From contig JAHIYJ010000034.1 in NCBI GenBank assembly GCA_018814825.1, positions 1 through 63,790 on the forward strand: 63,790 nucleotides of DNA, read 5' to 3'. The notes under the pieces were generated by a model, which searched no databases, was not told the DNA's origin, and was given only the letters and a program-made list of their open reading frames with translations. How positions within the stretch are numbered: the stretch's first letter is position 1; each line of letters begins with the position of its first letter. Below, one piece after another: positions 7,443-55,145 of the stretch. The position numbers were made by a program, and so were the translations under genes. This DNA comes from Candidatus Omnitrophota bacterium (lineage in GTDB: Bacteria > Omnitrophota > Gorgyraeia > Gorgyraeales > Gorgyraeaceae).

Positions 7443-7506
7443 AAAATCCTCCTTAATGAGCACTGGGTTTATGGAGTCTGAAAGACGACATAAACCAATG
7501 TGCGAA

Positions 7507-8955
7507 TTACCTGGCCCCTATCGAGAAAAGGACAGCAGGTATCGTTTTCAGTAAAATCTTAAGGTCCAAGCTCAGAGACCAGTTATCTATATATTCCAGA
7601 TCCATCTTCATCCATTTATGAAAATCCACGTTATTACGGCCGTTGGCCTGCCACAGGCAAGTGAGGCCGGGCTTCATGCTCAGCCTTCTCCTCTGCCATA
7701 TTTCATATTTTTCGACTTCTTCAGACACAGGCGGCCTTGGCCCAACAAAAGACATCTCTCCCTTCAGTATATTGAAAAGCTGAGGCAATTCATCCAGGCT
7801 GGTCCTGCGCAAGAATCTCCCGAATTTTGTCACCCTGGGGTCGTTGCGCATCTTGAATACCGGCCCGTCCATCTCGTTAAAACCGTTGAGTGTCTCTTTT
7901 TCCTTGTCAGCCCCGTTTATCATGGTCCTGAACTTATACATTATGAACTTCCTGCCGTTCAGTCCGCTGCGGACCTGTTTGAATATGGCTGGCCCCGGAC
8001 ATACTCTCTTTATGATAACCGTAAGCGCCACAAAAAGCGGGAACAAGAGAATTATGCCTGCCAGTGAGAATATTATATCAAATAACCTCTTAATTAACAA
8101 TTGCCATTCTTCGCCTACCGTGGCGCTGAACATCATAAGAGGAATCCCCTCTATATCCCCGGCAGTGGAACTGGCTATATTCATGTTGAAAAAATCCGTG
8201 GCGATATGCGCGTTAATGCCGCGGATCTCGCAATCAAGCAGGCTTTTCTCTATAAAGGGGAGCCATTTCCTAGGCACGATAAATATAACCTCATCGATAA
8301 CGTTTCGGGTCAGGATTTCAGGAATATCCTCTAAGACGCCTATGACTTTTTCGCCTCGCACGACCCGGCCTAACATCTCCCTCTCAGCGTCTATTAACCC
8401 GACGATCCTCAGTCCCCACTCCCTGTGTTTCTGAACAAGACTTATAAAATTCTCGGCCCTCTGCCCTGTGCCGACCACCAGTATATTCCTGTAATTATAA
8501 CCTTGTTTTCTCAGGAACCTGAGCACGATAACTATAAGCCACCTCTCGAGAGTCAACAGGAACCCAGCTATAAAAAACGAGGAAATTATTAAGCTCCTGC
8601 TGACGAAATCCAGTTTAAATATAAAAACCGCGGTGGCGAAAACTACCATTACGAAAAAACCGCTTTTCGCGATACCCCATACTAACTCAAAAAACTTTTT
8701 TCTCCTGAAAGATTCATATAACCCTGATGAACTCAAAGCCGCCCACCAGGCAAACAGAAAAAACGGCAATATGCCGATGTACTTTTGGGATCCTTTCAGT
8801 TCCCCTAGGATATGTCTCTCGGGGAAAAAATCGAGAGAATAGAAGTCCTGAATATTCTGCCTGAACCTGAAGGCGATTAAAAAAGCCACGAGCACCACGC
8901 TTAAATCAAGCACCATCAATAATTTTCTTAAAAGCTGTTCTTTCGCTTTAATCAT
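7507..8955 (-). CDS. Initiating polyprenyl-phosphate sugar-1-phosphate transferase (WbaP/EpsB type, Bac_transf domain)
   Basis: 482-aa ORF. N-terminal TM bundle, Rossmann-like NILVVGTGQRAENFI, and a C-terminal KRLFDIIFSLAGIILLFPLF...MYKFRTM...DELPQLFNILKGEMSFVGPRPP signature. Confidence 0.9.
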   Translation of the reverse strand: MIKAKEQLLRKLLMVLDLSVVLVAFLIAFRFRQNIQDFYSLDFFPERHILGELKGSQKYIGILPFFLFAWWAALSSSGLYESFRRKKFFELVWGIAKSGFFVMVVFATAVFIFKLDFVSRSLIISSFFIAGFLLTLERWLIVIVLRFLRKQGYNYRNILVVGTGQRAENFISLVQKHREWGLRIVGLIDAEREMLGRVVRGEKVIGVLEDIPEILTRNVIDEVIFIVPRKWLPFIEKSLLDCEIRGINAHIATDFFNMNIASSTAGDIEGIPLMMFSATVGEEWQLLIKRLFDIIFSLAGIILLFPLFVALTVIIKRVCPGPAIFKQVRSGLNGRKFIMYKFRTMINGADKEKETLNGFNEMDGPVFKMRNDPRVTKFGRFLRRTSLDELPQLFNILKGEMSFVGPRPPVSEEVEKYEIWQRRRLSMKPGLTCLWQANGRNNVDFHKWMKMDLEYIDNWSLSLDLKILLKTIPAVLFSIGAR

Positions 8956-44095: not shown

Positions 44096-47000
44096 TTATT
44101 CTTCTAACTTCAATTCATACCACCTTCCAGGCCCCAGAGGCCCTCGGGCAATAATAATGTTTTTATCCACAAGTTCTTTTAAGTCTCTTGCCGCAGTGGG
44201 TACAGATATCTTGAACAACTGGGAGTATTCCTTGCGTGTAATCTTTTTTTTCACCCGCAGATGTTCCAAAAACTGCTCCTGTCTCTTGTTCAGTTTTAGC
44301 GACAACCCCTCAGGCTTTTTCTCAGGAAGAGCTATCGCGGCAGGTGGTTCTATTTTTGGCTTTTCTGCTTTCGGCTCAGGTTTAACTGACTCAGGCAGCT
44401 GTATCGACAGAGGTTTCTCAGTTCGCAGCACAGGAACAGGTTTGGATTGGGGCATAACAAAAGCAGGCTTGGGCTTTAAGTCAGCTTTTGGCATAATAAC
44501 GCCAGCTACAATTGTAAATATACAAGGGATTACAAAAAGGGTCAGTATGGTGGAGATTGTAAGCCCTCCCATTACTGTTATGGCCATCGGGCTTTGTAGC
44601 TCTGATCCCTCGGCTATACCCATGGCTAAAGGCAAAAGACCCAATACTGTGGTCATGGTAGTCATGAGTATCGGCCTGAGTCTTGTCTTGCCAGACTCAA
44701 TTACAGCCTCCGTCAGGTCCATGCCCTGCGATCTCAGGTTATTGATAGTATCTATCAATATAATACCATTATTGACCACAATGCCCCCTAGTATTATGAC
44801 TCCAAGCATAACCACTACGCTTATAGGCGTATGTGTCACAAAAAGAGCTACAAGTACCCCCATAATAGATAACGGGACACTAAACATTATAATAAAAGGC
44901 TGCCACAGCGACTCAAACTGGGCGGCCATGATCATATAGACAAGGAGTATGGACAATAAAAGCGCGAATCTCAGGGATTGAAAGGACTCGTTCATCTGCT
45001 GACTCTCACCTGACAAAGCAAGTGTAATATCCTTTTCAGAGTCTTTTGAGGATAACTGAGAAATTTTTTCTCTTTCAATCCTATCTAACATCAGTTTTAC
45101 ATCCCTTATTACCTTATCAAGGGCCCTGTCAGATATATTGGCTGTGACAAGAACCACTCTCTGCTGATCAAGCCGTTTTATCTCGCTAGGACCGATACCC
45201 TGGGTTATATAAGCCACTTCGGAAAGCGGAACCTGTATATCCAGTGGAGAGTAAACAAGAACATTCCTGACCTGCGAAAGATTAGACCTGTCTTCTTTTC
45301 TAAGCCTGACTCTCACATCTATCTCTCTTCCCTCTTCTTTAAATTTAGTCGCGACCACTCCTTTTATAGCAGTATGAGCGGCTTGTGCAATTACGGCCGC
45401 GGAAAGGTTATAAAGAGCTGCCCTGTCTTTTATAATATTCACCTTTGTTTCAGGGGCAGGCTGCGTAAGGCTAGTACGTATTCCATAAATACCTTTAATG
45501 GTTAAAAGATCCTCTTTTATATATCCAGCTACTTTTTCTATCTCATCCAGTTTTTTTCCTTTTATTTCAATCACGATAGGCGCGGATCCCTGGAGCGCTG
45601 TTTTAAAAACGCTCTCCTGTACTACATACTCTATCTCAGCACCTCCCAGATTTAATTTACTAAACTTATCTTTTAATCTTTCTATGACTTTGGAGGTAGC
45701 CGGCCATTGTTTGCCTTTTTTCAGGGTCACTATGCTTTGAGCCTGATGAGACCCCATTGTCTCTAAGCCGCTGGCAAAGTCTTTCTTCTTACTGGAGCCT
45801 ATGCTTACAGCTACACCTTCAACTTCCTTTGTGCCAAAGAACACTTCTTCTATCTTTTTTACGACATTATCAGTTATATCCAGTTTAGTCCCGCTGGGCA
45901 TAGTCAGCTTCATGACAAATTCGCGCTGGTCCACCTTTGGCATAAATTCTTTATCTATGAAAAAGAAAAGTCCCATGCTCAGCACGTAAACTGAAAGCAC
46001 CGCTATTAAAAATATCCATTTAAACTTCAGAACTAACGGCACAATCCTAGCATATACAGACTCTAATCCAAATGTAAATTTTTTATTTTGGACCAAGGGC
46101 CGTTCTTTACTTAGTTTATCTGTTTTTATGGCTGCCAGGCGGGGAATCAGAGAAAGGGCTATAACCAATGAAGCAAGTAGAGAAAAAGTAACAGTAAAGG
46201 CCAGTTCTTTAAACAACTGGCCAGCCACACCTACAACAAATATCATCGGAAGAAAAACCGCAACAGTAGTAAGCGTTGAAGAAAATATCGCTCCTGACAT
46301 CTCGCTTGCGCCAGACTTACTGGCTTCTTTTATATCTTTTTTCTTCTGTAAATGACTATATATATTCTCTATTACTACTATGGCATTATCAACAAGCATG
46401 CCTACGCCCAGGGCTAGGCCCCCCAGAGAAAGCATATTCAATGTAATGCCGTTAAAATACATAAGGCTGAATGCCACCATAATTGACATAGGCATGGAAA
46501 AAGCCACTATCAGGGAAGCCTTTATGTTTCTTAAAAAAACGAATAACACCAGAAAAGCCAGGATCCCTCCCTGTATGGCCGCGTCCATTACTCCGCGTAT
46601 GGATTTTTTTATGAATATGGACTGGTCGTACACTATATTAACTTCCATCCCTGGCGGCAAGTCTCTTTTGATCTGGACCAGCTTATCTCTCACGTTCTGG
46701 GCCACGCGCATGGTATTAACACCCGCCTGTTTCTGCACAGAAATGGAGATATTCTCCTGCCCGTTATAGCGCGATATGCTGGTCTTCTCCTGAAACGTGT
46801 CCTTTATGTCAGCTATATCTTTTAAAAATATAAGGCGGGACTTTTTTTCACCTTGTTCTTCCTGAGGAATCTCAGGCACTTTATCTTCCTCGGATTTATC
46901 CTTACCGACAACGGTTTCTTTTATTTCCGGAACTACTTTAAACTCTCCCATTGTCCTTATAAGATATTCATAAAAATGCTCTTCTATAGTCCCGGCAGGA

Positions 47001-47638
47001 TAATTTAGATTTGATGACTTTAAAGAATCCACTACTTTAGTTATAGAGATTGAAGAAGCATGCAGCCTACCCCCATCCACAGATACAAGTATTTCTCTTT
47101 CAATGCCTCCCGCTATATTACAGGAAGCCACTCCCTCCACCTTTTCCAGTTCATCCTTTATAAATTTTCTTGAGAGCCTTAGCAGTTCTGATGGGGACTT
47201 TTCTCCTATTACGCTCAGCGTGATAACAGGCATCTCAAATGGGTTGAACTTCATCACAATAGGATCGCTTGACCCCAGAGGAAGCCTCTCTTTTATAAGA
47301 TCTATTTTTTCCCTGACGCCCAATGAGGCAAAATCCATATTAGCGCCCCATCCAAACTCAGCAGTAACTATGGAGACTCCTTCTTTAGAGACAGAGCTTA
47401 TGCGTTTCAGATTACTTACTGTTCCGACTGTTTCTTCTATTATCTTTGTTATTAGCGTTTCTACTTCTTCTGGAGCGGCGTTTTCATATGTCGTAACTAT
47501 AGTGAGCTGAGGGTAAGTAATGGAGGGGAAAAGTTCTCTGGGGAGACGCGTCAGGGAAATAAACCCTAATATCAGAACCCCGATAAAGAACATAGAGGTT
47601 GTAACAGGTCTGTTTACTGAAAATTCTGGAAGATTCAT
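44096..47638 (-). CDS. RND efflux permease (AcrB/MdtB-like) with ~75-aa Pro/Lys-rich linker and C-terminal winged-helix DNA-binding-like domain
   Basis: 1180-aa ORF. The RND core runs to about aa 1040 (GLALGVGMLVDNAIVVIENI, last TM ILTLFVIPCIFTIVAGVI). The linker is KPKPAFVMPQSKPVPVLRTEKPLSIQLPESVKPEPKAEKPKIEPPAAIALPEKKPEG. The tail is LNKRQEQFLEHLRVKKKITRKEYSQLFKISVPTAARDLKELVDKNIIIARGPLGPGRWYEL. Confidence 0.88.
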   Translation of the reverse strand: MNLPEFSVNRPVTTSMFFIGVLILGFISLTRLPRELFPSITYPQLTIVTTYENAAPEEVETLITKIIEETVGTVSNLKRISSVSKEGVSIVTAEFGWGANMDFASLGVREKIDLIKERLPLGSSDPIVMKFNPFEMPVITLSVIGEKSPSELLRLSRKFIKDELEKVEGVASCNIAGGIEREILVSVDGGRLHASSISITKVVDSLKSSNLNYPAGTIEEHFYEYLIRTMGEFKVVPEIKETVVGKDKSEEDKVPEIPQEEQGEKKSRLIFLKDIADIKDTFQEKTSISRYNGQENISISVQKQAGVNTMRVAQNVRDKLVQIKRDLPPGMEVNIVYDQSIFIKKSIRGVMDAAIQGGILAFLVLFVFLRNIKASLIVAFSMPMSIMVAFSLMYFNGITLNMLSLGGLALGVGMLVDNAIVVIENIYSHLQKKKDIKEASKSGASEMSGAIFSSTLTTVAVFLPMIFVVGVAGQLFKELAFTVTFSLLASLVIALSLIPRLAAIKTDKLSKERPLVQNKKFTFGLESVYARIVPLVLKFKWIFLIAVLSVYVLSMGLFFFIDKEFMPKVDQREFVMKLTMPSGTKLDITDNVVKKIEEVFFGTKEVEGVAVSIGSSKKKDFASGLETMGSHQAQSIVTLKKGKQWPATSKVIERLKDKFSKLNLGGAEIEYVVQESVFKTALQGSAPIVIEIKGKKLDEIEKVAGYIKEDLLTIKGIYGIRTSLTQPAPETKVNIIKDRAALYNLSAAVIAQAAHTAIKGVVATKFKEEGREIDVRVRLRKEDRSNLSQVRNVLVYSPLDIQVPLSEVAYITQGIGPSEIKRLDQQRVVLVTANISDRALDKVIRDVKLMLDRIEREKISQLSSKDSEKDITLALSGESQQMNESFQSLRFALLLSILLVYMIMAAQFESLWQPFIIMFSVPLSIMGVLVALFVTHTPISVVVMLGVIILGGIVVNNGIILIDTINNLRSQGMDLTEAVIESGKTRLRPILMTTMTTVLGLLPLAMGIAEGSELQSPMAITVMGGLTISTILTLFVIPCIFTIVAGVIMPKADLKPKPAFVMPQSKPVPVLRTEKPLSIQLPESVKPEPKAEKPKIEPPAAIALPEKKPEGLSLKLNKRQEQFLEHLRVKKKITRKEYSQLFKISVPTAARDLKELVDKNIIIARGPLGPGRWYELKLEE

Positions 47639-48899: not shown

Positions 48900-50735
48900 T
48901 TATTTCATGTTTGCCAACATAAAACCTTTGTTATCCAGAAACAGCGCGTATCCCGTAGCCTTGTTTAATTTAGCCAAGGCCTGATATAAACTTCCTATTG
49001 ACTCTATGTAAAATAATTTTTCATCAGAAAGGCTCATGTAAGCTTTTATGAGTTCTGAGATTGGTATTTCATTCAATTCTGTCCGCGCCTTCGTGATTTT
49101 AAGCTCCTCTTCTCTGTATTTAATCTTGTCGAGATTAGTATTAACCTGGACAAGGCCTTTTTTGTAATTTAAATAAGATTCTTTTGCCTCTTTAATGACC
49201 AATTCCCTGGCTTTCTGCAAATCTTCTTTTGCTTTCTTAAACCCTATTTCCGCGGATTTCCGCTCAGAAAACGCCTGCATACCGTCAAGAAGGCCTAATT
49301 CCACGGCCTTACTAATTGATGATGTCCTTGAAGTCTGGCCATGTTTTTCGCTGGTCTCCTCCTTTGTATAGGAAGTGGATAGCGTATTTGACCCTAAAGG
49401 CTTGGAAACCTTTAGGCCAATAAACCAATCCTTATCCATATTAAGCGTCTCGGTTTCATACGCCCCGCCTGACTTTCCATAAGAACCCGTAAGGTCAACT
49501 TTTATCCGGTCTTTGCTTTCTGATATCTTCTTTTCATACTCGTTAAACTCCACCATATATTCCTTGGCTTTTAGATCAGGCCTGTTTCTAAAAGCCATCT
49601 CCAGGTAATCCTCAAATTCGAAGTCTAAATAAATAGGTTTCAGCTCAACAAGATTAATATCTGTATCTATAACAGATTCTAATTTATCAGGGTTTTCAAT
49701 ACCCATTGCCTGCGCCAATGTCAACTTGGCCATCTCCATGTCATTATTGCTTGAAGTCATTTGATAATTAATCTGTTTTATCTGAGATTCAACCTGTAAA
49801 AATTCCGACCTTGTAGTCAGGCCCATATCAAATCGCTTTTTAGCTATATCAAAAATTTTCTGTGTCTGATCCAAAAGGGTTTTCTGTGTTTCGAGATTAA
49901 GCTTGCTTGCCAGATAGGCATAAAATCCTGTTTCCACTTCTATCCGTATTTCCTGAAGGGCCTTATCGTAATTATGCCTTGATGCATTTACATTACTGAT
50001 AGCCTGTTCAACCGCGTATTTAAGCCTCCCCGCATAGTACAGAGGGTATTCAAACTTAAGTTTATATTCCTTATCAGTAAAATCCTGGGTCGAACCAGTG
50101 GTCTGCCCTATTGTCTCCATATAATTCAAACTTGATGCCGGGAAAAGCGCTCGGTGCGCCTCTCTGAGCTTAAGCCTTGCCAATTCCACCTCTTCAGACG
50201 CAATCTTTGCGGCCATCTGATTTTCCAGAGCAATATCAACTGCGTCATTAATATTATATAAATCTAATTTTTCTCCTTCAATTTTGTTCTCAGTGGTTCT
50301 GTAAATCTTAGCCTTCTTATCTGACATCTGTTCCGGTGTCTTAACCTGAGCCTTTAAATCAAATATCACAGGCACCTCTATCCATAAATCTTCTTCCCCT
50401 AATGCCTCAGGAAAAGGTTGAAACCTGTCGTATTTCCAAACCGCATTGAGACACAAATTATCAAGCTCCTGGCTGCCTGACGACTCTGACACATAGGCAT
50501 CTTTCACCTCACCCCATGGAGAAAGAAGCAGCTTTATTCTTATTTCTCCTCTGGAATCACGCAAAACAGATTCGCTGGGTGTCAAAATGTCTGCGTAAAT
50601 ATCTCTTGATATTTCAAGAATATAATTTGTGATAATATCCGAAGGATGAGGATAGGCAAATGATATGGTTTGTGAAAATGCTGTAATTATAATAATTACG
50701 ATGAGATATAATAATATGATACGCTTTATAAACAT
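48900..50735 (-). CDS. TolC-family outer membrane factor with N-terminal TonB C-terminal-like domain
   Basis: 611-aa ORF. After the signal peptide comes GEIRIKLLLSPWGEVKDAYVSESSGSQELDNLCLNAVWKYDRFQPFPEALGEEDLWIEVPVIFDL (TonB_C pattern). About aa 160-611 has the duplicated OMF coiled/barrel repeats (AVDIALENQMAAKIASEEVELARLKLREA, LTTRSEFLQVESQIKQ). Confidence 0.85.
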   Translation of the reverse strand: MFIKRIILLYLIVIIIITAFSQTISFAYPHPSDIITNYILEISRDIYADILTPSESVLRDSRGEIRIKLLLSPWGEVKDAYVSESSGSQELDNLCLNAVWKYDRFQPFPEALGEEDLWIEVPVIFDLKAQVKTPEQMSDKKAKIYRTTENKIEGEKLDLYNINDAVDIALENQMAAKIASEEVELARLKLREAHRALFPASSLNYMETIGQTTGSTQDFTDKEYKLKFEYPLYYAGRLKYAVEQAISNVNASRHNYDKALQEIRIEVETGFYAYLASKLNLETQKTLLDQTQKIFDIAKKRFDMGLTTRSEFLQVESQIKQINYQMTSSNNDMEMAKLTLAQAMGIENPDKLESVIDTDINLVELKPIYLDFEFEDYLEMAFRNRPDLKAKEYMVEFNEYEKKISESKDRIKVDLTGSYGKSGGAYETETLNMDKDWFIGLKVSKPLGSNTLSTSYTKEETSEKHGQTSRTSSISKAVELGLLDGMQAFSERKSAEIGFKKAKEDLQKARELVIKEAKESYLNYKKGLVQVNTNLDKIKYREEELKITKARTELNEIPISELIKAYMSLSDEKLFYIESIGSLYQALAKLNKATGYALFLDNKGFMLANMK

Positions 50736-50756
50736 AACTTCTCCTAGTAAGGGAGA

Positions 50757-50785
50757 AGTATATCATACTATTATTATTTTGTCAA
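50757..50785 (-). promoter_or_regulatory. Sigma70 promoter for the RND efflux operon
   Basis: Minus-strand reading: TTGACA (50780-50785), 17-nt spacer AAATAATAATAGTATGA, TATACT (50757-50762). It lies about 21 nt upstream of ATG 50735, which has SD AGGAGAAG. Confidence 0.6.
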
Positions 50786-50818
50786 TAGTAGGTAAGTGAT
50801 ACGGTGTTGATACGGTTA

Positions 50819-50936
50819 CCCCGCACCTTTTTATATTCAGGCATTTTCTTAAAAAGATTGAATGGTTAAAAGGTGCGGGGTAAGTTCGGACAGATGGGTT
50901 ATGAAAATCAAAGATTTTCGTAACCCATGTCCTCAC
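50819..50936. repeat. Structured intergenic repeat, copy A (two hairpins), abutting the ROK gene stop codon
   Basis: Plus-strand reading. Hairpin 1 is CCCCGCACCTTTT, a 36-nt loop, AAAAGGTGCGGGG. Then TAAGTTC. Hairpin 2 is GGAC AG ATGGGTTATGAAAATC AAAG ATTTTCGTAACCCAT GTCC, followed by TCAC. By manual alignment, 64 of the last 69 nt are identical to copy B. Confidence 0.85.
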
Positions 50937-52178
50937 TTAAGCCTTTATAAAGACCTCACGTATTACTATGCTCGCGGCACCCAGAGCAACAGCGTCTTTC
51001 CCAAGCTGAGCTGGTATAATCTTTACTATATTTGCAGGCTCTTCAAATGCCCATTTCCTTACTGTCCTTCTAAGAGGTTCGAGGAACAGGCTGCCTGCTT
51101 TCTCAACTCCGCCCCCTATTATAACTATCTCAGGATTAAAGAGGTTCACCAGATACGCTATACGCACGCCAAGATTAACAGCAGCGTCTTCTAGGAGCTC
51201 TATGGCAAGCGTATCACCGGCCTTTGCCGCGTCTATGATATGGTTCACTGCCATCTTATCCAGGTCGTTGCCGCAGATTTGAGGTATAGTAGATTCTATG
51301 CCCTCTTCCTTTATAAGTTTCTGCGCCCTGCTTATAAGCCCAAGATCAAGGCCCATAGGCAATAATAACGATAGGTTCTTTGACATCTTAAGGTAATCGC
51401 CGTTCCTGGGATAATTTATGCGAATCTCTCCTGCTGACCCGCTCGCTCCGCAATATATACCGCCTTTTATTATGATACCTGAGCCCACATCAGAATACAT
51501 ATAGATAACATCTTCGACATCCATGGGAAGAGCGTGCATTTTTTCGCCAAAAGCCGCGAATGTGGCATCGTTCCCCAGAAAAGAGGGGATCTCGAATCTT
51601 TCCTCTATCATGCCTTTTATGGACACATAACTTGTGCGTATCCCGTTTTTGCTTGAATCCCTTACAGTGCCAAGGCCCTTGTCTATAACACCTCCTATTC
51701 CTATACCAACACCTCTCACCTTTTCTTTTATGACTCCTTTTTTACCCATCAGTTCTTCTATCATATCAAGAGACTGATCTATGATCCTATCCATGGAGTC
51801 TTTTGCCCTTAACTTGTCTATTTTCGATATAATCTTGCCCGATAGATCCGTAACCACTCCTATCATCGTAGCGCCTTCAGAACCCGTATGCCCCAGATCA
51901 AGGCCTATGGCGTAACCATGCTCCTCATTCAATTTGACCAGGGTAGGCTTCCTACCCCCGGAAGACGCTTCCATGCCCCCTTCTATGACAAGCTTCTCGT
52001 TTATATAGGTATTGACATAATTTGATACGGTTACTATGTTCAGGTCTGTGATCTTGGAGATATCAGCCCTTGTGATAGGCCCGTTTCTTCGTATAAACTC
52101 CAATATTGAGAAATTTTTTTTCTCGTGGTCCGAAAGCAAACTTCCCTCTAACGCCCGGTTTCTATTGGTAATTGGCAT
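50937..52178 (-). CDS. ROK-family transcriptional regulator (NagC/XylR-like)
   Basis: 413-aa ORF with SD AAGGAGG. The N-terminal wHTH is ILEFIRRNGPITRADISKITDLNIVTVSNYVNTYI. ROK sugar-kinase fold motifs are AIGLDLG, GIGIGGVID and GASGSAGEI. The Cys-rich zinc motif is not evident. Confidence 0.88.
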   Translation of the reverse strand: MPITNRNRALEGSLLSDHEKKNFSILEFIRRNGPITRADISKITDLNIVTVSNYVNTYINEKLVIEGGMEASSGGRKPTLVKLNEEHGYAIGLDLGHTGSEGATMIGVVTDLSGKIISKIDKLRAKDSMDRIIDQSLDMIEELMGKKGVIKEKVRGVGIGIGGVIDKGLGTVRDSSKNGIRTSYVSIKGMIEERFEIPSFLGNDATFAAFGEKMHALPMDVEDVIYMYSDVGSGIIIKGGIYCGASGSAGEIRINYPRNGDYLKMSKNLSLLLPMGLDLGLISRAQKLIKEEGIESTIPQICGNDLDKMAVNHIIDAAKAGDTLAIELLEDAAVNLGVRIAYLVNLFNPEIVIIGGGVEKAGSLFLEPLRRTVRKWAFEEPANIVKIIPAQLGKDAVALGAASIVIREVFIKA

Positions 52179-52197
52179 GTGTCCCTCCTTTTAATGA

Positions 52198-52250
52198 GCA
52201 GACGACTTATGGAGCGCAGCGACATAAGTCGTAGGCTGAAAGCCGTCTGC
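52198..52250 (-). other. Multi-stem structured element in the ROK gene leader
   Basis: The plus strand reads GCAGACGACTTATGGAGCGCAGCGACATAAGTCGTAGGCTGAAAGCCGTCTGC. It can form a 10-bp stem ACGACTTATG/CATAAGTCGT, a mini-hairpin GGCT/AGCC and an outer stem GCAG(AC)/(GT)CTGC. It ends about 19 nt upstream of the ROK ATG. Confidence 0.4.
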
Positions 52251-52257
52251 GAATTAA

Positions 52258-52367
52258 CCCCGCACCTTCTTAATATTCATCGACTGTAAGAAATATATAA
52301 AAGGTGCGGGGTAAGTTCGGACTTATGGCTTACGAAAATCAAAGATTTTCGTAAGCCATGTCCTCAC
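52258..52367. repeat. Structured intergenic repeat, copy B, abutting the stop codon of the 929-aa OMP gene
   Basis: Same architecture as copy A. Hairpin 1 is CCCCGCACCTTCT, a loop of about 28 nt, AAAAGGTGCGGGG. Then TAAGTTC. Hairpin 2 is GGAC TT ATGGCTTACGAAAATC AAAG ATTTTCGTAAGCCAT GTCC, followed by TCAC. Confidence 0.85.
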
Positions 52368-55145
52368 CTAGAATATTCCGTGATAGTAAATACGCAGTAT
52401 GTGCTGCGTATCGAGTGTCGGATAAAAATCCCCGTAAGGGCTCGCTGTCGCGCCCCATACAGGGGAAACAACGCTTCCCTCTCCAAACTGTATCACCAGA
52501 AGCCCGTATTCAGTGACATTGCAATTGAACTCCATGAACACGTTGTGGTGATTCTCGTATTTCAGGTCTCCGGTCGTGTTCAGGCGATACATATTATACA
52601 GCTTGGAAAATGTGTATTTGAGGAACCCCGTAAGCCTTGGGTTAAACTTATATTTTAAAGTAGTCCCTATATGGTTTATATTGTCATCTATACCTGAGGC
52701 AAACTTGAAGTCGTTTTTAGTATAGTCAAAGTCTATCCCTAGTTTTTCGGTAGGCCGCAGGGAGATGCCGGCCCTGAATATATTGAACCTGTCATAAGGC
52801 GGAAGGTCAAACCAACCCTGACTGTAAAGCTGGGCAATCTCATCCCTGTATACCTTGCCTTCTATAGTCTCGGTCGTAAAATATGTGCTGTTTAAGAGCC
52901 CGTTCGGATGGTTGCCTGTCCCAAACCTGTAATCATTTGTATTTTCATAGATACCAAACAAGCTTATCCATTCCTCAGGCGCGTATTCCAGGCCAAAGGA
53001 ATACGTGGAAAGCGATGGGTCATTGCCGTCTTCGATCGCCGTATTCTTGAGGAATTCTCCTGTATCAGAATCATACTGTATAGGGTCTATGCCGCCTTTT
53101 GTTTTCGGTAGATCATGGTATATATACAAAAGCTTTGATGTCCACCTGGGATTAATCCTCAGGGTATTCTCTTCCCTGAAAACCCCTTCCACGTATTTAT
53201 GCTCGGAATCCCTTACATACCTGCAATCTATCAGGTTATCCATCTTGCTGTCAAAGGCGTCCCTGGAATCCAGCCTGAAATTAATGGCGTCCCTACCTAT
53301 ATCAACGCCATCCCCTATCCTGAAAGGCTCCACGTCCTCATATTTCAACGACGTGCCGCCCCATGCGTCCTGCTCAAGAGGTTTTTTAAAATGTATGTGC
53401 CTTCCCCAGTGCATATCTTTTCTTGTTTCCCTGTAATTCGCGAGACCGGGGTCAAACGTCTCATCCATATGCGTTATGGCTAACTTGGCGTTACCGAGTC
53501 CTGTCTCTTTTTTAACGGCAAGGTGCCCTGCTGTTCCGTTTTTCTCAGTCTTATAGGAACTTGTTCTGTCATATTCGCTCTTACTCATCGCGACCTGGCC
53601 TACTATATTAGTGGAAGGGTTCAGGTCATAACTCGCGTCAACGCCCAATACATTATTGTAGGAATCTGTGTTATTGTCATCATCATAACCTATCCTGAAC
53701 GTGTCTATGGTCCCTATCATAAGGCTGTCTGTCAACTGCGTCTTTGTCCTCATTGCGCCGGGAATAGCGTTTACCTCCCCATAATCGTCCCACAGGCCCT
53801 TGGGACTAGCCACGGTCATTGACATGTCCGTATTGCCCAGCAGATTACCTTGAAAGGCCACTCCGCGCAGGGCAGTAAGCCTTTTCAGGTCGCTGTCCCG
53901 CGTGAAAAAGGTCAAATCGTCTGACCATTCTCCTCTCCAGAAGTCATCCGGGGTCGTCCCTGTATTAATATGCCCTGGTTTCCACTCGTCCAACCAGGGG
54001 CTCGGTTCCCAGTATATGTGGTGGTTAGAAAGACCCATAGGGTCATCGGAAGAAAGCGCCTGGTCCTCAAGGCCATAAGGAAATACCCTGAACTTGTAAT
54101 CCTCCTGATTAAAATCAAACCACAGCTCTCTTACTGGCTGAAATGTAAAATCTATGTCTTTCTCAGGGATCGTAAAAGTATTCCCATAGAGATCCGAGAC
54201 AGTAGTGGAAGGCATCTTGCCGTCTGAAACTTTATATTCAGATGTTGCTATAGATGCGCCTGTATCGAGAGTATATAAAATTTCGTTTATAGTGCTCCTG
54301 GTGCCAGACCAATATTTCAATTCCATCTCGACCCTATCTCCGCCGCCATTTCTTGTAACAGTAAATTTATCTGTCTTACCAACAAAACTCCACGGGTCCA
54401 CAGTTATATCTGAATGGAGATTAAAACCCTCTGCATCCTTATTCGTATCAAATGTCACCTTAAATCGATCATACACCCTTGTATCAAATGTATTTGTCTT
54501 GGGGAAATTATGATCTATCATCCTGAAGTTACGCTCATTATAGTCGGCGTTAGCCTTTTTCCAAATAACGTCTTCTGTCGTCACGCCTACCGACATCTTG
54601 TATTCACCCTTTATCCTTCCGGGGGCAATCTTCTCATTCAGCGCGTCAGTAACAACCTTTATCTTGTCTTCGCTATACCCCGGGTCTTCAGGAATCCTAC
54701 CAGGCCTATAGTCTTTATATTCATAGGAGTCTTCATATGTGTTTGTATCAGGTTCATAAGGCTCTATTTCGGCGTAAACCCTGCTCTCATTAAAATCCGA
54801 TTCCCTCTTCAGGTTATTCTCATCCTGGTAAAAATCTAGCTTGCCGCGCGCGCGCATGTTCAGCTCAGCATTCACCAAGTCAAGATAACCCTGGGCATCA
54901 TCATTCATGGGATCAACCTTTAGGGCTCTTTCCAAGATACTCTTTGCCTCATGAAGCTTTCCTGCGTGGTAATAATCCACACCCCTGCCATAAAGCCCGA
55001 AACTCTCGGCAATATTCTGTTCCTGGGCATACAAGGCCGCCAGGACACAAGGACACAAAGACACAAGGACACAAAGACACAAGGACACAAAGACACAACA
55101 ATATTGGTGACTTGGTGACTTGGTGACTTGGTGACTCCTGCGCAT
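52368..55145 (-). CDS. Large secreted protein: N-terminal TPR segment plus C-terminal beta-barrel-like outer-membrane domain
   Basis: The track ORF runs to 55157 (929 aa). The ATG at 55143-55145 has GGAG 6 nt upstream and lies 2 nt after the upstream stop. The signal peptide is encoded by tandem repeats and ends AALYA/QEQ. A TPR-like segment is YYHAGKLHEAKSILERALKVDPMNDDAQ. The Y/D/N-rich body has alternating strands and ends LRIYYHGIF. Confidence 0.75.
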   Translation of the reverse strand: MRRSHQVTKSPSHQYCCVFVSLCLCVLVSLCPCVLAALYAQEQNIAESFGLYGRGVDYYHAGKLHEAKSILERALKVDPMNDDAQGYLDLVNAELNMRARGKLDFYQDENNLKRESDFNESRVYAEIEPYEPDTNTYEDSYEYKDYRPGRIPEDPGYSEDKIKVVTDALNEKIAPGRIKGEYKMSVGVTTEDVIWKKANADYNERNFRMIDHNFPKTNTFDTRVYDRFKVTFDTNKDAEGFNLHSDITVDPWSFVGKTDKFTVTRNGGGDRVEMELKYWSGTRSTINEILYTLDTGASIATSEYKVSDGKMPSTTVSDLYGNTFTIPEKDIDFTFQPVRELWFDFNQEDYKFRVFPYGLEDQALSSDDPMGLSNHHIYWEPSPWLDEWKPGHINTGTTPDDFWRGEWSDDLTFFTRDSDLKRLTALRGVAFQGNLLGNTDMSMTVASPKGLWDDYGEVNAIPGAMRTKTQLTDSLMIGTIDTFRIGYDDDNNTDSYNNVLGVDASYDLNPSTNIVGQVAMSKSEYDRTSSYKTEKNGTAGHLAVKKETGLGNAKLAITHMDETFDPGLANYRETRKDMHWGRHIHFKKPLEQDAWGGTSLKYEDVEPFRIGDGVDIGRDAINFRLDSRDAFDSKMDNLIDCRYVRDSEHKYVEGVFREENTLRINPRWTSKLLYIYHDLPKTKGGIDPIQYDSDTGEFLKNTAIEDGNDPSLSTYSFGLEYAPEEWISLFGIYENTNDYRFGTGNHPNGLLNSTYFTTETIEGKVYRDEIAQLYSQGWFDLPPYDRFNIFRAGISLRPTEKLGIDFDYTKNDFKFASGIDDNINHIGTTLKYKFNPRLTGFLKYTFSKLYNMYRLNTTGDLKYENHHNVFMEFNCNVTEYGLLVIQFGEGSVVSPVWGATASPYGDFYPTLDTQHILRIYYHGIF
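55043..55136. repeat. Two adjacent 8-nt tandem repeat arrays inside the 5' end of the OMP gene
   Basis: The plus strand has seven units of GGACACAA/AGACACAA (55043-55098), a 6-nt spacer, then four units of TGGTGACT (55105-55136). In mRNA sense these are (AGTCACCA)x4 followed by (TTGTGTCY)x7. They encode RSHQVTKSPSHQ and CCVFVSLCLCVLVSLCPCVL. Confidence 0.9.

Follow-up and report, generated by a model that had tools for sequence, protein, structure and literature searches.

We conclude, with a probability of about three in four, that the two structured repeats bracketing a ROK-family regulator gene of a Candidatus Omnitrophota bacterium are copies of a small, non-coding palindromic insertion family, similar to MITEs, REPINs and BIMEs, which is found in many Omnitrophota genomes and targets the triplet TAA. 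The family is previously undescribed, and our literature searches returned nothing on repeats of Omnitrophota. Its copies are dispersed over many genomes, their hairpins covary, orthologous junctions occur with and without an element (with TAA on both sides when it is present), most copies face the same way relative to the upstream gene, and there is no link to ROK genes.

The analysed stretch of DNA (contig JAHIYJ010000034.1, 63,790 nt) is referred to as the window. A previous reading of the window, made from the sequence only, had described two direct structured repeats around the ROK gene, and we found them as described. A repeat search recovered a 73-nt core common to both copies (50867-50939 and 52298-52370, 92% identity) together with the hairpin arms CCCCGCACCTT.../...AAGGTGCGGGG and ATGGsTTAyGAAAATC/GATTTTCGTAAsCCAT, and the 23-mer AAAGGTGCGGGGTAAGTTCGGAC occurred twice in the window compared to 0.00 expected from shuffles. 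The predicted RNA folds were strong (−54.5 kcal/mol, z = −9.0 for copy A; −88 kcal/mol, z = −10.4 for copy B). While both copies were confirmed, their extents had to be enlarged to 50816-50939 (copy A) and 52191-52370 (copy B): the stop-codon triplet itself is part of the conserved element, and copy B reaches further left into a third hairpin (52191-52257), an inverted and diverged copy of the 3′ arm. Both copies also abut the stop codon of an upstream minus-strand gene, as claimed, although one of the genes had been misplaced. Copy A ends in the ROK stop TAA (50937-50939) and copy B in the TAG (52368-52370) of a gene for a 929-aa protein with the TPR repeat as its sole Pfam match, whereas the outer-membrane protein gene (TolC-like outer-membrane efflux, OEP) lies downstream of copy A. 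A covariance model of the arm (R1) matched four arms in the window, the fourth of them solitary. The features are as follows:

7453-7509, minus strand: solitary L-type arm (R1 match 7451-7513 on the minus strand, 38.3 bits, E 5e-8; sequence; Pfam).
50757-50815, minus strand: native control region of the TolC-like/efflux operon, with tandem CCGTATCA boxes (50797-50815) and a TTGACA-17-TGnTATACT promoter (50785-50757).
50816-50880, strand not assigned: central hairpin (hp1) of copy A plus TTA; hp1 (50819-50880) is CCCCGCACCTTTT, loop, AAAAGGTGCGGGG (inverted repeat I4, fold, empty-site comparison).
50881-50939, plus strand: R arm of copy A, TAAGTTCGGAC...GTCCTCACTTA (R1 match 50877-50942, 71.2 bits).
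50937-52178, minus strand: ROK-family gene, 413 aa, winged-helix HTH and ROK domain (Pfam PF00480, E 4e-35).
52191-52257, minus strand: L arm of copy B, the inverted, diverged R-arm copy (R1 match 52188-52261 on the minus strand, 29.9 bits).
52258-52311, strand not assigned: hp1 of copy B, CCCCGCACCTT, 28-nt loop, AAGGTGCGGGG (inverted repeat I3 and predicted RNA fold).
52312-52370, plus strand: R arm of copy B, TAAGTTCGGAC, 2-nt bulge, 16-bp stem-loop, GTCCTCACCTA (R1 match 52308-52373, 69.8 bits, E 1e-16).

Copy A is without an L arm, and the TTA before its hp1 (50816-50818) is a second, duplicated TAA on the mRNA strand. In copy B the L arm reads, in mRNA sense, TTAATTCGCAGAC...GTCTGCTCATTAA with a 12-nt inserted mini-hairpin, and its terminal TAA is immediately 5′ of the ROK Shine-Dalgarno sequence AAGGAGGG. 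The solitary arm fits exactly between the TAA of a sugar-transferase gene (7509-7507) and the AGGAGG Shine-Dalgarno sequence and ATG (7442) of a SurA_N-like gene. The control region next to copy A, where the promoter scan gave 11 of 12 matches and whose motif CCGTATCA occurred 8 times compared to 1.2 expected, is kept in orthologues with an empty site; it lies outside the element and marks the insertion boundary.

The same module recurs across Omnitrophota. An exact 20-mer was present at 9 loci, and a two-block pattern in at least 115 stretches, with several per MAG and ∼75 Omnitrophota MAGs among the matches listed. The module consists of a variable hairpin followed by TAAGTTCGGAC, a covarying 10-bp stem and GTCCTCACTTA. 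As a sequence-only profile (nhmmer) failed to detect the L arms, we used the covariance model, which added arms at those loci, as many as 6 within 8 kb. In mRNA sense, the full element reads TAA; a reversed R arm (GTGAGGAC, 10-bp stem, variable tip, GTCCGAACTTA); hp1, a variable hairpin closed by G+C whose sequence differs among subfamilies across genomes; an L arm (TTAATTCGCAC, stem, GTGCTCAT); and again TAA. The L and R arms represent the same ∼60-nt unit in inverted orientation. They formed terminal inverted repeats in 17 L/R pairs among 60 loci (same model, opposite strands, 17-135 nt apart), and the L-arm motif GCGAATTAA was found beyond hp1 in about two-thirds of R arms. Shortened forms also occur, such as R arm and hp1 in copy A or the L arm alone at 7453-7509, and elements are 60-230 nt long. 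The elements adjoin unrelated genes with housekeeping roles (EF-Tu, FabG, RibBA, DnaA, PurH, RNase Y, RnfD and ribosomal proteins), and the S10-spc-alpha ribosomal-protein cluster holds 18 of the 121 element loci. Viral contigs contained no copies. Conserved 11-mers were identical in many species; DUS/USS-type uptake signals were ruled out as their explanation because it is the entire 60-230-nt module that is present or absent, and because the copies are strictly intergenic and reach a density of only ∼0.02-0.1 per kb.

The compensatory change of G:C to C:G between the two copies, pointed out from the sequence alone, is real and generalises to strong covariation throughout the family: in 71 sequences, 8 pairs had changes on both sides (111 cells), which was reached in 0 of 500 shuffles. 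The check that had been proposed, a search of relatives for further copies and covariation, turned up both. A second difference between the copies, a single T.G pair in copy A, was also as described. In the 10-bp stem, 1253 of 1274 pairs (98%) were Watson-Crick, and G-U pairs were without strand bias (7 versus 8 in the stem, 87 versus 100 in hp1); together these two observations point to palindromes at the level of DNA. It is highly improbable that the element encodes an antisense small RNA, as had been considered, or a non-canonical terminator. The fold is stable on either strand, but the balance of G-U pairs favours neither, and the promoter scan gave no promoter-like site facing the element on the plus strand in or beside the copies. 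The hairpins had been judged not to be classical terminators and we agree: no terminator-like site was predicted at copy A or copy B, there is no U tract on either strand, and the element tails (UAAGUU or UUAAUU) fall short of the U tract of an intrinsic terminator. Strong termination would also do damage within operons for ribosomal proteins, and elements are present there. With Rfam, a tRNA alone reached the gathering score in the whole window, and permissive filters in 50700-52450 yielded one chance miRNA match (E = 0.53).

Comparison of orthologous junctions revealed how the element sits between genes. At an empty site TAA is directly followed by the next gene, while a filled site reads TAA, element, TAA and next gene, with both the upstream stop codon and the downstream ribosome-binding site intact. 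Downstream of ROK, four empty loci (L124, L126, L131, L144) read TAA followed by CCGTATCAAGACCGTATCA; the window has TAA, R arm and hp1, TAA and then CCGTATCAACACCGTATCA. At the same spot two loci (L146, L138) carry an L arm only and one (L139) a composite, each between TAA and TAA. On the upstream side of ROK, six loci lack an element and three are filled (the window, L139 and L122). Empty and filled pairs were also seen at other junctions, including genes 1-3 nt apart that are split by a 207-nt insert. In total, five or more junctions had one TAA when empty and TAA on both sides when filled, a picture that would look the same for a true target duplication and for an element that brings a TAA of its own and inserts beside another. 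The terminal sequence is nearly invariant: in 49 of 50 composites the final letters are CTCAT(T)TAA, with a Shine-Dalgarno sequence or start codon coming next, and start codons often lie 0-5 nt past the terminal TAA. The distal triplet was TAG in 1 of 50 composites, compared to 22% TAG among TA-containing stops. Moreover, in 76 of 124 cases (61%) the terminal TAA of the element also closed an open frame of 60 codons or more, versus 4.6% for TAA triplets in general. Relative to the upstream gene, some 80-85% of elements point the same way.

An element is absent from most of the 58 loci with a ROK orthologue. R-type arms on both sides of ROK were seen only in L139; a different L arm is present downstream in three loci and an L arm upstream in two. 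(When metagenomes were scanned with the ROK protein, no population was closer than 90% identity.) These numbers bear on the earlier suggestion that the AT-rich inner palindrome is an operator, bound by the ROK repressor on both sides of its own gene. This suggestion suits the local picture only, in which two copies flank ROK and the palindrome has the size typical of NagC/XylR-type operators, and we consider it extremely improbable. The palindrome is the variable, subfamily-specific tip of the stem, which differs in most copies while the arms are constant, and the same subfamily occurs on contigs without ROK (L013, L037, L093). Across relatives we found no association with the ROK locus or a regulon: the module adjoins unrelated genes in ∼75 genomes among the matches listed, and only a handful of the 58 ROK loci carry any unit. 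In addition, another conserved motif, the tandem CCGTATCA boxes, is located at the neighbouring promoter.

Another suggestion was that the repeats are cassette boundaries, which would make ROK a mobile cassette between integron-like (attC-type) sites. The elements do resemble attC in being folded imperfect palindromes with extrahelical, bulged bases and a variable terminal structure, placed in one orientation directly 3′ of frames and often overlapping the stop. However, relatives show the same order TPR gene - ROK - TolC-like gene whether or not they carry elements, which means that it was the element that moved, not the gene. Elsewhere the units adjoin core genes (for example those for EF-Tu, DnaA and ribosomal proteins), the RYYYAAC/GTTRRRY core sites are not matched (GTTCGGA is wrong at 2 of 7 positions and the L arm is without GTT), and a cassette array or integrase context is lacking. 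Cassette boundaries are thus hardly tenable. In our reading, two consecutive stops, that of the gene for the TPR protein and that of ROK, have each received an insertion, which is why the ROK gene is bracketed by two elements; it has no functional tie to them.

Among the four readings initially offered, a REP/BIME-like element at mRNA 3′ ends came closest, in that the units are dispersed, multi-copy palindromes at gene ends; the REP tag and unit length are not matched. REP doublets in proteobacteria are mobilised by a HUH tyrosine transposase (RAYT), and effects of REP, BIME and REPIN sequences on mRNA stability are documented. Like them, the Omnitrophota units are imperfect palindromes that lie outside genes, at their 3′ ends, often in inverted doublets or mosaics, and have persisted in the lineage for long. 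We therefore asked whether the family could be of the REPIN/RAYT type in the strict sense, an inverted palindrome doublet that a HUH tyrosine transposase, single-copy and vertically inherited, moves in single-stranded form. The inverted doublet around a spacer is there, conservation in many species would be expected with a vertically inherited partner, selected pairing without G-U bias fits folded DNA, and the orientation bias could reflect replication coupling (all ORFs of the window with 150 aa or more share a strand). Nevertheless, we regard this type as improbable. HUH transposition makes no target duplication, which TAA on both sides resembles. The arms are mirror images whose bulge and mismatch features differ on one strand, and this fits recognition of inverted repeats in duplex DNA better. 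REPs are defined as imperfect palindromes of 20-40 nt with a GTAG or CGTC tag at one end (PMC3733652). The Omnitrophota units are untagged and two to three times longer (arms of 57-60 nt that start with TAAGTTCGGAC or TTAATTCGCAC), have TAA duplicated, are also found inside ribosomal-protein operons, and had no RAYT or other Y1-transposase gene flanked by units among the sequence examined.

In several properties the element resembles a MITE: it is under ∼300 bp, non-coding and multi-copy, with terminal inverted repeats, and it has TAA on both sides at filled sites versus one TAA at empty sites, as after a target duplication. The Correia elements (NEMIS) of Neisseria are MITEs whose inverted repeats fold into long hairpins that are cleaved by RNase III in mRNA (PMC10969869). 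They share with the Omnitrophota element the small size, the absence of coding sequence, terminal inverted repeats, many copies per genome, a short A/T target on both sides, a location near genes and, presumably, co-transcription. In contrast, the Omnitrophota inverted repeats are ∼60-nt palindromes with covarying pairs and have a separate variable hairpin in the middle; the flank is TAA instead of TA and is shared with a stop codon in 61% of copies; the arms are identical in many species, and no parent insertion sequence is known. Other intergenic, transcribed and hairpin-forming repeats of ∼100-200 nt are ERIC/IRU, pneumococcal BOX, RUP and SPRITE, whose orientation affects transcript fate (PMC10969869, PMC3049150). 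The Omnitrophota element is likewise an intergenic hairpin-forming repeat with an orientation to the gene, but belongs to another phylum and is unrelated in sequence. To our knowledge, none of those repeats has been reported on the stop codon itself. IS200/IS605-derived PATEs have like hairpins on the same strand at both ends, no inverted repeats and no duplication, and insert 3′ of a 4-5 nt target; the Omnitrophota arms are mirror-imaged and the target is just TAA, present on both sides, although the orientation bias would fit a PATE.

For a mobile palindromic family that targets TAA, we propose that insertion would occur at a TAA triplet, mostly the stop codon of a gene, and would leave TAA on both sides. 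As a result, the upstream frame still ends in TAA and the next ribosome-binding site or start codon is untouched. The reaction would be carried out by a trans-acting enzyme encoded elsewhere, with specificity for the conserved sequences of the arms and for DNA that is folded or palindromic. The inserted element would then be co-transcribed and form stable hairpins in the mRNA, which may act as processing or stability signals. In 1.24 Mb of Omnitrophota sequence, in which all ORFs of at least 110 aa from 121 loci were clustered, we found neither a mobilising gene or transposase nor an autonomous copy sharing the ends of the element. The recurrent ORF families were ribosomal proteins, T2SS ATPase, M24 peptidase and LpxD, with no transposases, and the genes between successive units were ordinary operon genes. 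A search for orphan outer half-arms, which could belong to a longer element, gave just a single remnant of 24 nt, located in L026 where two genes converge. We also count against mobility that the identity of the 11-mers across species exceeds the usual conservation of MITE families.

Finally, we asked whether resident copies are kept by the host. The L arm upstream of ROK is identical to the orthologous arm in L122/L156 at 81 of 82 positions versus 32% divergence at synonymous third positions, a comparison of one genome pair, since other pairs with a shared junction are saturated at synonymous sites. Together with the 11-mer identity and the orientation bias, this hints at selection on resident copies, i.e. 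a host- or RNA-level role and not purely selfish turnover, and some copies may have been co-opted by the host. We consider it possible, though only tentatively, that the element is kept as RNA punctuation, for the function of its hairpins in polycistronic mRNA, which would be compatible with a mobile origin. The hairpins could be barriers to RNase III or 3′-exonucleases that set relative cistron stability, or the fold could bring the upstream stop near the downstream start so that translational coupling survives the insert. Such a function is consistent with the very stable fold, the strong orientation bias and the excess of elements inside ribosomal-protein operons, where starts often follow the terminal TAA so closely. 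Furthermore, it is invariably an L-type arm (GTGCTCAT), without the CCUC of the R type, that adjoins the downstream Shine-Dalgarno sequence, and the R arm has on the mRNA strand two tandem G.A/A.G mismatches, which as RNA are a stable motif. On the other hand, occupancy of orthologous sites is patchy with most ROK loci empty, the lack of G-U enrichment on either strand is unusual for a selected RNA helix, and the R-arm and hp1 portion of the very site with the conserved L arm is entirely different in the closest relative. A bolder version, which we find doubtful, is a lineage-wide operon punctuation: the element would land on TAA stops, rebuild the stop, spare the next ribosome-binding site and accumulate in the most highly expressed operons, resident copies would be selected for cistron-specific mRNA processing or stability or for stop-start coupling across the 60-230-nt insert, and a conserved Omnitrophota protein would read the invariant arms.

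Omnitrophota are a large, almost wholly uncultured phylum for which we know of no genetic system. An easily recognised repeat can correct gene calls in these genomes, as starts and stops abut the element; the family can also explain contig breaks in MAGs and may serve as a lineage marker. By sitting on the stop codon and restoring the stop, the element has a tidy way into very compact operons, including those for ribosomal proteins. If resident copies are under selection, the family would be a testable case of mobile palindromes recruited for post-transcriptional control.

The two structured repeats that bracket the ROK gene lie in a run of minus-strand genes, given here in mRNA order.

55157-52368, minus strand: TPR-containing protein gene, 929 aa
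52191-52370: copy B of the repeat
52178-50937, minus strand: ROK gene
50816-50939: copy A of the repeat, followed by a promoter
50735-48900, minus strand: TolC-like outer-membrane efflux (OEP) gene with a TonB C-terminal domain

HlyD-like and AcrB-like genes come next downstream of the TolC-like gene, and copies A and B each include the stop codon of the preceding gene. A repeat search of the window returned a direct repeat of 73 nt (50867-50939 and 52298-52370, 92% identity) and recovered both sets of hairpin arms; the core 23-mer occurs exactly twice in the window, compared with no occurrence in 100 shuffles. The predicted RNA structure has three neighbouring hairpins in copy B (-88 kcal/mol, z = -10.4) and two in copy A (-54.5 kcal/mol, z = -9.0). 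The sequence-only reading had described this region correctly, and its observation is confirmed and extended here. Its proposal of an antisense RNA found no support, as a site scan predicted neither terminator-like nor promoter-like sites in the two copies and the elements matched no Rfam family.

The element is a family and not a ROK feature. The exact core 20-mer was found at nine loci in species-representative genomes, all of them Omnitrophota MAGs (two have a Planctomycetia label in the record), adjoining genes for EF-Tu, FabG, RibBA, a histone-deacetylase-family protein, DnaA, YchF/PurH, RNase Y and RnfD. A looser family pattern (TAAGTTCGGAC, 10-40 nt, GTCCTCACTTA) returned at least 115 stretches in ~75 MAGs, several per MAG, and 124 instances were extracted. 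The module consists, in order, of hp1 (a hairpin of variable sequence with closing pairs YCC...GGR), the block TAAGTTCGGAC, a 2-nt bulge and a 10-bp stem (consensus ATAASTTAYG) with a variable tip, and the block GTCCTCACTTA. A covariance model of the R-arm unit, R1, was built from 71 units and matched copies A and B with ~70 bits each. A ROK protein search gave orthologues at 33 genome loci and 25 metagenome loci of Omnitrophota (66-90% identity), and R1 units lay beside ROK in few of them: on both sides in L139, downstream in L146, L138 and L157, and upstream in L122 and L156. Moreover, the AT-rich tip seen in the window (GAAAATC AAAG GATTTTC) represents one of many tip subfamilies and also occurs on three contigs without ROK (L013, L037 and L093). 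The earlier suggestion that the palindrome is a ROK operator is therefore unsupported.

R1 also found two arms in the window that the first inspection had missed.

52188-52261, minus strand: L arm of copy B, inverted, with a 12-nt inserted mini-hairpin
7451-7513, minus strand: solitary L-type arm

Across loci, the L-arm motif GCGAATTAA lies beyond hp1 in about two-thirds of R arms, and L and R arms are paired on opposite strands at a spacing of 17-135 nt. A complete element is thus built of two ~60-nt palindromic units in inverted orientation with a central hairpin between them; copy A is truncated and retains just the R arm and hp1. The arms differ from each other in a consistent way (R, TAAGTTCGGAC...GTCCTCACTTA; L, TTAATTCGCAC...GTGCTCATTAA).

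Comparison of orthologous junctions with and without the element indicates that it is an insertion. Downstream of ROK, four empty loci (L124, L126, L131 and L144) read TAA, CCGTATCAAGACCGTATCA and then TTGACA, while in the window the order is TAA, R arm, hp1, a second TAA and CCGTATCAACACCGTATCA before TTGACA. At the same position L146 and L138 have TAA, L arm, TAA and CCGTATCA, and L139 has TAA, R arm, a remnant, L arm, TAA and CCGTATCA. Upstream of ROK, six empty loci show TAA, a few bases, AAGGAGG and ATG; in the window, L139 and L122 a composite has a stop-type triplet on either side (TAG...TAA in the window, TAA...TAA in L139 and L122) and stands immediately 5' of AAGGAGG. Other junctions are alike, such as a pair of genes separated by 1-3 nt in L046 and L075 but by a 207-nt element in L086. 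The outer L end was TAA in 49 of 50 definable composites, with a Shine-Dalgarno sequence or start codon directly behind it. The distal triplet was TAG in only 1 of 50 composites compared with 22% of TA-containing stop codons in the same loci, indicating that TAA, and not simply TA, is what is repeated or targeted. Short arm remnants were seen upstream of ROK in L138 and L148, at the L046 junction (38,37) and in L026 (2070-2095), for example TAAGTAAGTCATTTGACCGAACTAA, and TAGATGAGGGCATAACTCATGGAG abutting the Shine-Dalgarno directly, which suggests that older insertions have decayed by internal deletion and were not cleanly excised.

The structure is under selection, and the variable stem covaries strongly across the family. 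In the alignment of 71 units, two-sided changes occurred at 8 of 10 variable-stem pairs (111 cells), a covariation value reached by none of 500 shuffles, and shifting the partners by 1-3 columns lowered pairing from 98.7% to 28-49%. Watson-Crick pairs made up 1253 of 1274 in the 10-bp stem. The plus-strand mismatches (7 G:T versus 8 A:C) favour neither strand, and G-U pairs in hp1 folded on either strand differed negligibly (87 versus 100). This near-perfect complementarity and covariation without wobble enrichment fits palindromes maintained at the DNA level, which could occur via folded-DNA recognition or quasi-palindrome correction directed by a template. A selected RNA helix of the classical kind is a poorer fit.

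An opposite-strand open frame of 60 or more codons finishes precisely on the element's terminal TAA in 76 of the 124 instances; in another 18 the TGA of TAAGTGA closes it, and in 13 it enters the arm. By comparison, only 4.6% of all TAA triplets in the same loci terminate such a frame. Thus, in the great majority the R arm points toward the upstream gene and the L arm toward the downstream ribosome-binding site. All 50 gene-like ORFs of at least 150 aa across the 63.8 kb lie on the minus strand, an extreme bias, so that within the window transcription-linked and replication-linked orientation are not separable. The S10-spc-alpha ribosomal-protein cluster held 18 of 121 loci, far above its genome share; highly expressed genes favour TAA stops, which may contribute to this excess.

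We consider a generic mobile palindrome the best reading, with a probability of about three in four. Clustering of ORFs across the loci for a mobilising gene gave housekeeping families only, and no copies were found in viral contigs. Genes between successive units are ordinary operon genes, as is ROK, and the only orphan half-arm found was a 24-nt remnant. By analogy, the inverted arms and 3-bp repeat would point to a DDE-type cut-and-paste enzyme as the mover (IS5/Harbinger-like elements duplicate TWA), while the internal palindromes, orientation bias and deep conservation are reminiscent of a REPIN/RAYT-type system. A function at the RNA level, which could coexist with mobility, seems rather unlikely to us, although there are hints in its favour: the orientation bias, the lack of CCUC in the arm abutting a ribosome-binding site, the tandem G.A pairs that the R arm shows in mRNA sense, the terminal TAA followed by a start codon within 0-5 nt, and the conservation of one resident arm. 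The window's closest relative, L122 (identical to L156), has a ROK protein 89.6% identical and differs at 32% of synonymous third positions (117 of 365). Over 82 nt of the L arm and Shine-Dalgarno upstream of ROK there is a single difference, and the copy-specific 12-nt insert is common to both; for the adjoining hp1 and R arm the two genomes have unrelated sequences. Against a coding average of ~85%, 81/82 identity has a probability of ~2e-5 (binomial estimate), which indicates that this L arm was kept well beyond neutrality and the neighbouring module replaced. Within the window, copies A and B share 92% identity over the R arm and hp1 stem and are nearer each other than to the same-position copies in L139, suggesting that one was recently copied from, or gene-converted by, the other.

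Beyond copy A, tandem CCGTATCA boxes (ACCGTATCA, 2-4 nt, ACCGTATCA; 50797-50815, minus strand) lie just upstream of a near-consensus promoter (TTGACA-17-TGnTATACT; 50785-50757, minus strand) of the TolC-like/HlyD/AcrB operon. The boxes are kept in nearly all orthologous loci (L123-L150), and the window has 8 occurrences of the 8-mer versus 1.2 expected, one of them within the ROK coding region (52023-52030) in an exact 13-nt repeat, TTGATACGGTTAC. They are a better operator candidate than the element's palindrome. A leader hairpin (ACTTCTCC, loop, GGAGAAGT; 50737-50759, minus strand), conserved in most orthologous loci, pairs the Shine-Dalgarno of the TolC-like gene immediately 5' of its ATG, so that the efflux operon may be under translational control. 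Two fusions in this operon are unusual: the AcrB-family pump (44096-47638, minus strand) has a C-terminal DeoR-type HTH (residues 1119-1163), and the outer-membrane efflux protein (48900-50735, minus strand) carries its TonB C-terminal domain at the N-terminus.

At the same sorts of site next to stop codons, Omnitrophota loci also carry other small repeats, palindromic or tandem, that are unrelated to this family (L122, L141, L142 and L132, after the ROK stop; L127, L130, L152; L036, L051, L098, L103; L018, L032, L091, L042). They include AAGTTTACACTTTAACGTTGTTGAAATGTAAAGTT palindromes, GTCATTGCGAGG...CGAAGCAATC units and short tandem arrays such as those of GCTGTAAGTTTTAAGC and ACAGAGGACAGAAGAC, and TCCCTCGCCGC...GCGGCTCGGGA hairpins at such sites double as hp1. 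Omnitrophota intergenic spacers seem to be largely assembled from small repeat modules. A run of N (masked or unresolved) lies beside the tandem ACAGAGGACAGAAGAC array at the S3/L16 ribosomal-protein junction of L042, and repeats of this kind may break or confuse MAG assemblies.

We found no published description of this family in Omnitrophota in the literature. The earlier REP/BIME-like interpretation was broadly right in that this is a dispersed palindromic family at gene ends. The alternative that the repeats are cassette boundaries is not borne out. The element behaves like a bacterial MITE and a REP/BIME mosaic. However, it lacks the GTAG or CGTC tag that defines REP sequences (PMC3733652), and it does not have the core site that defines integron attC. 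Its closest functional analogues are REPINs, ERIC, Correia elements, which duplicate TA and whose transcript hairpins are cut by RNase III (PMC10969869), and the pneumococcal BOX, RUP and SPRITE repeats (PMC3049150). What is unusual is that the element lands on the stop codon and the stop is then rebuilt, that each of the inverted repeats forms a covarying palindrome of its own, that ribosomal-protein operons are occupied and that arm sequences are identical in many species.
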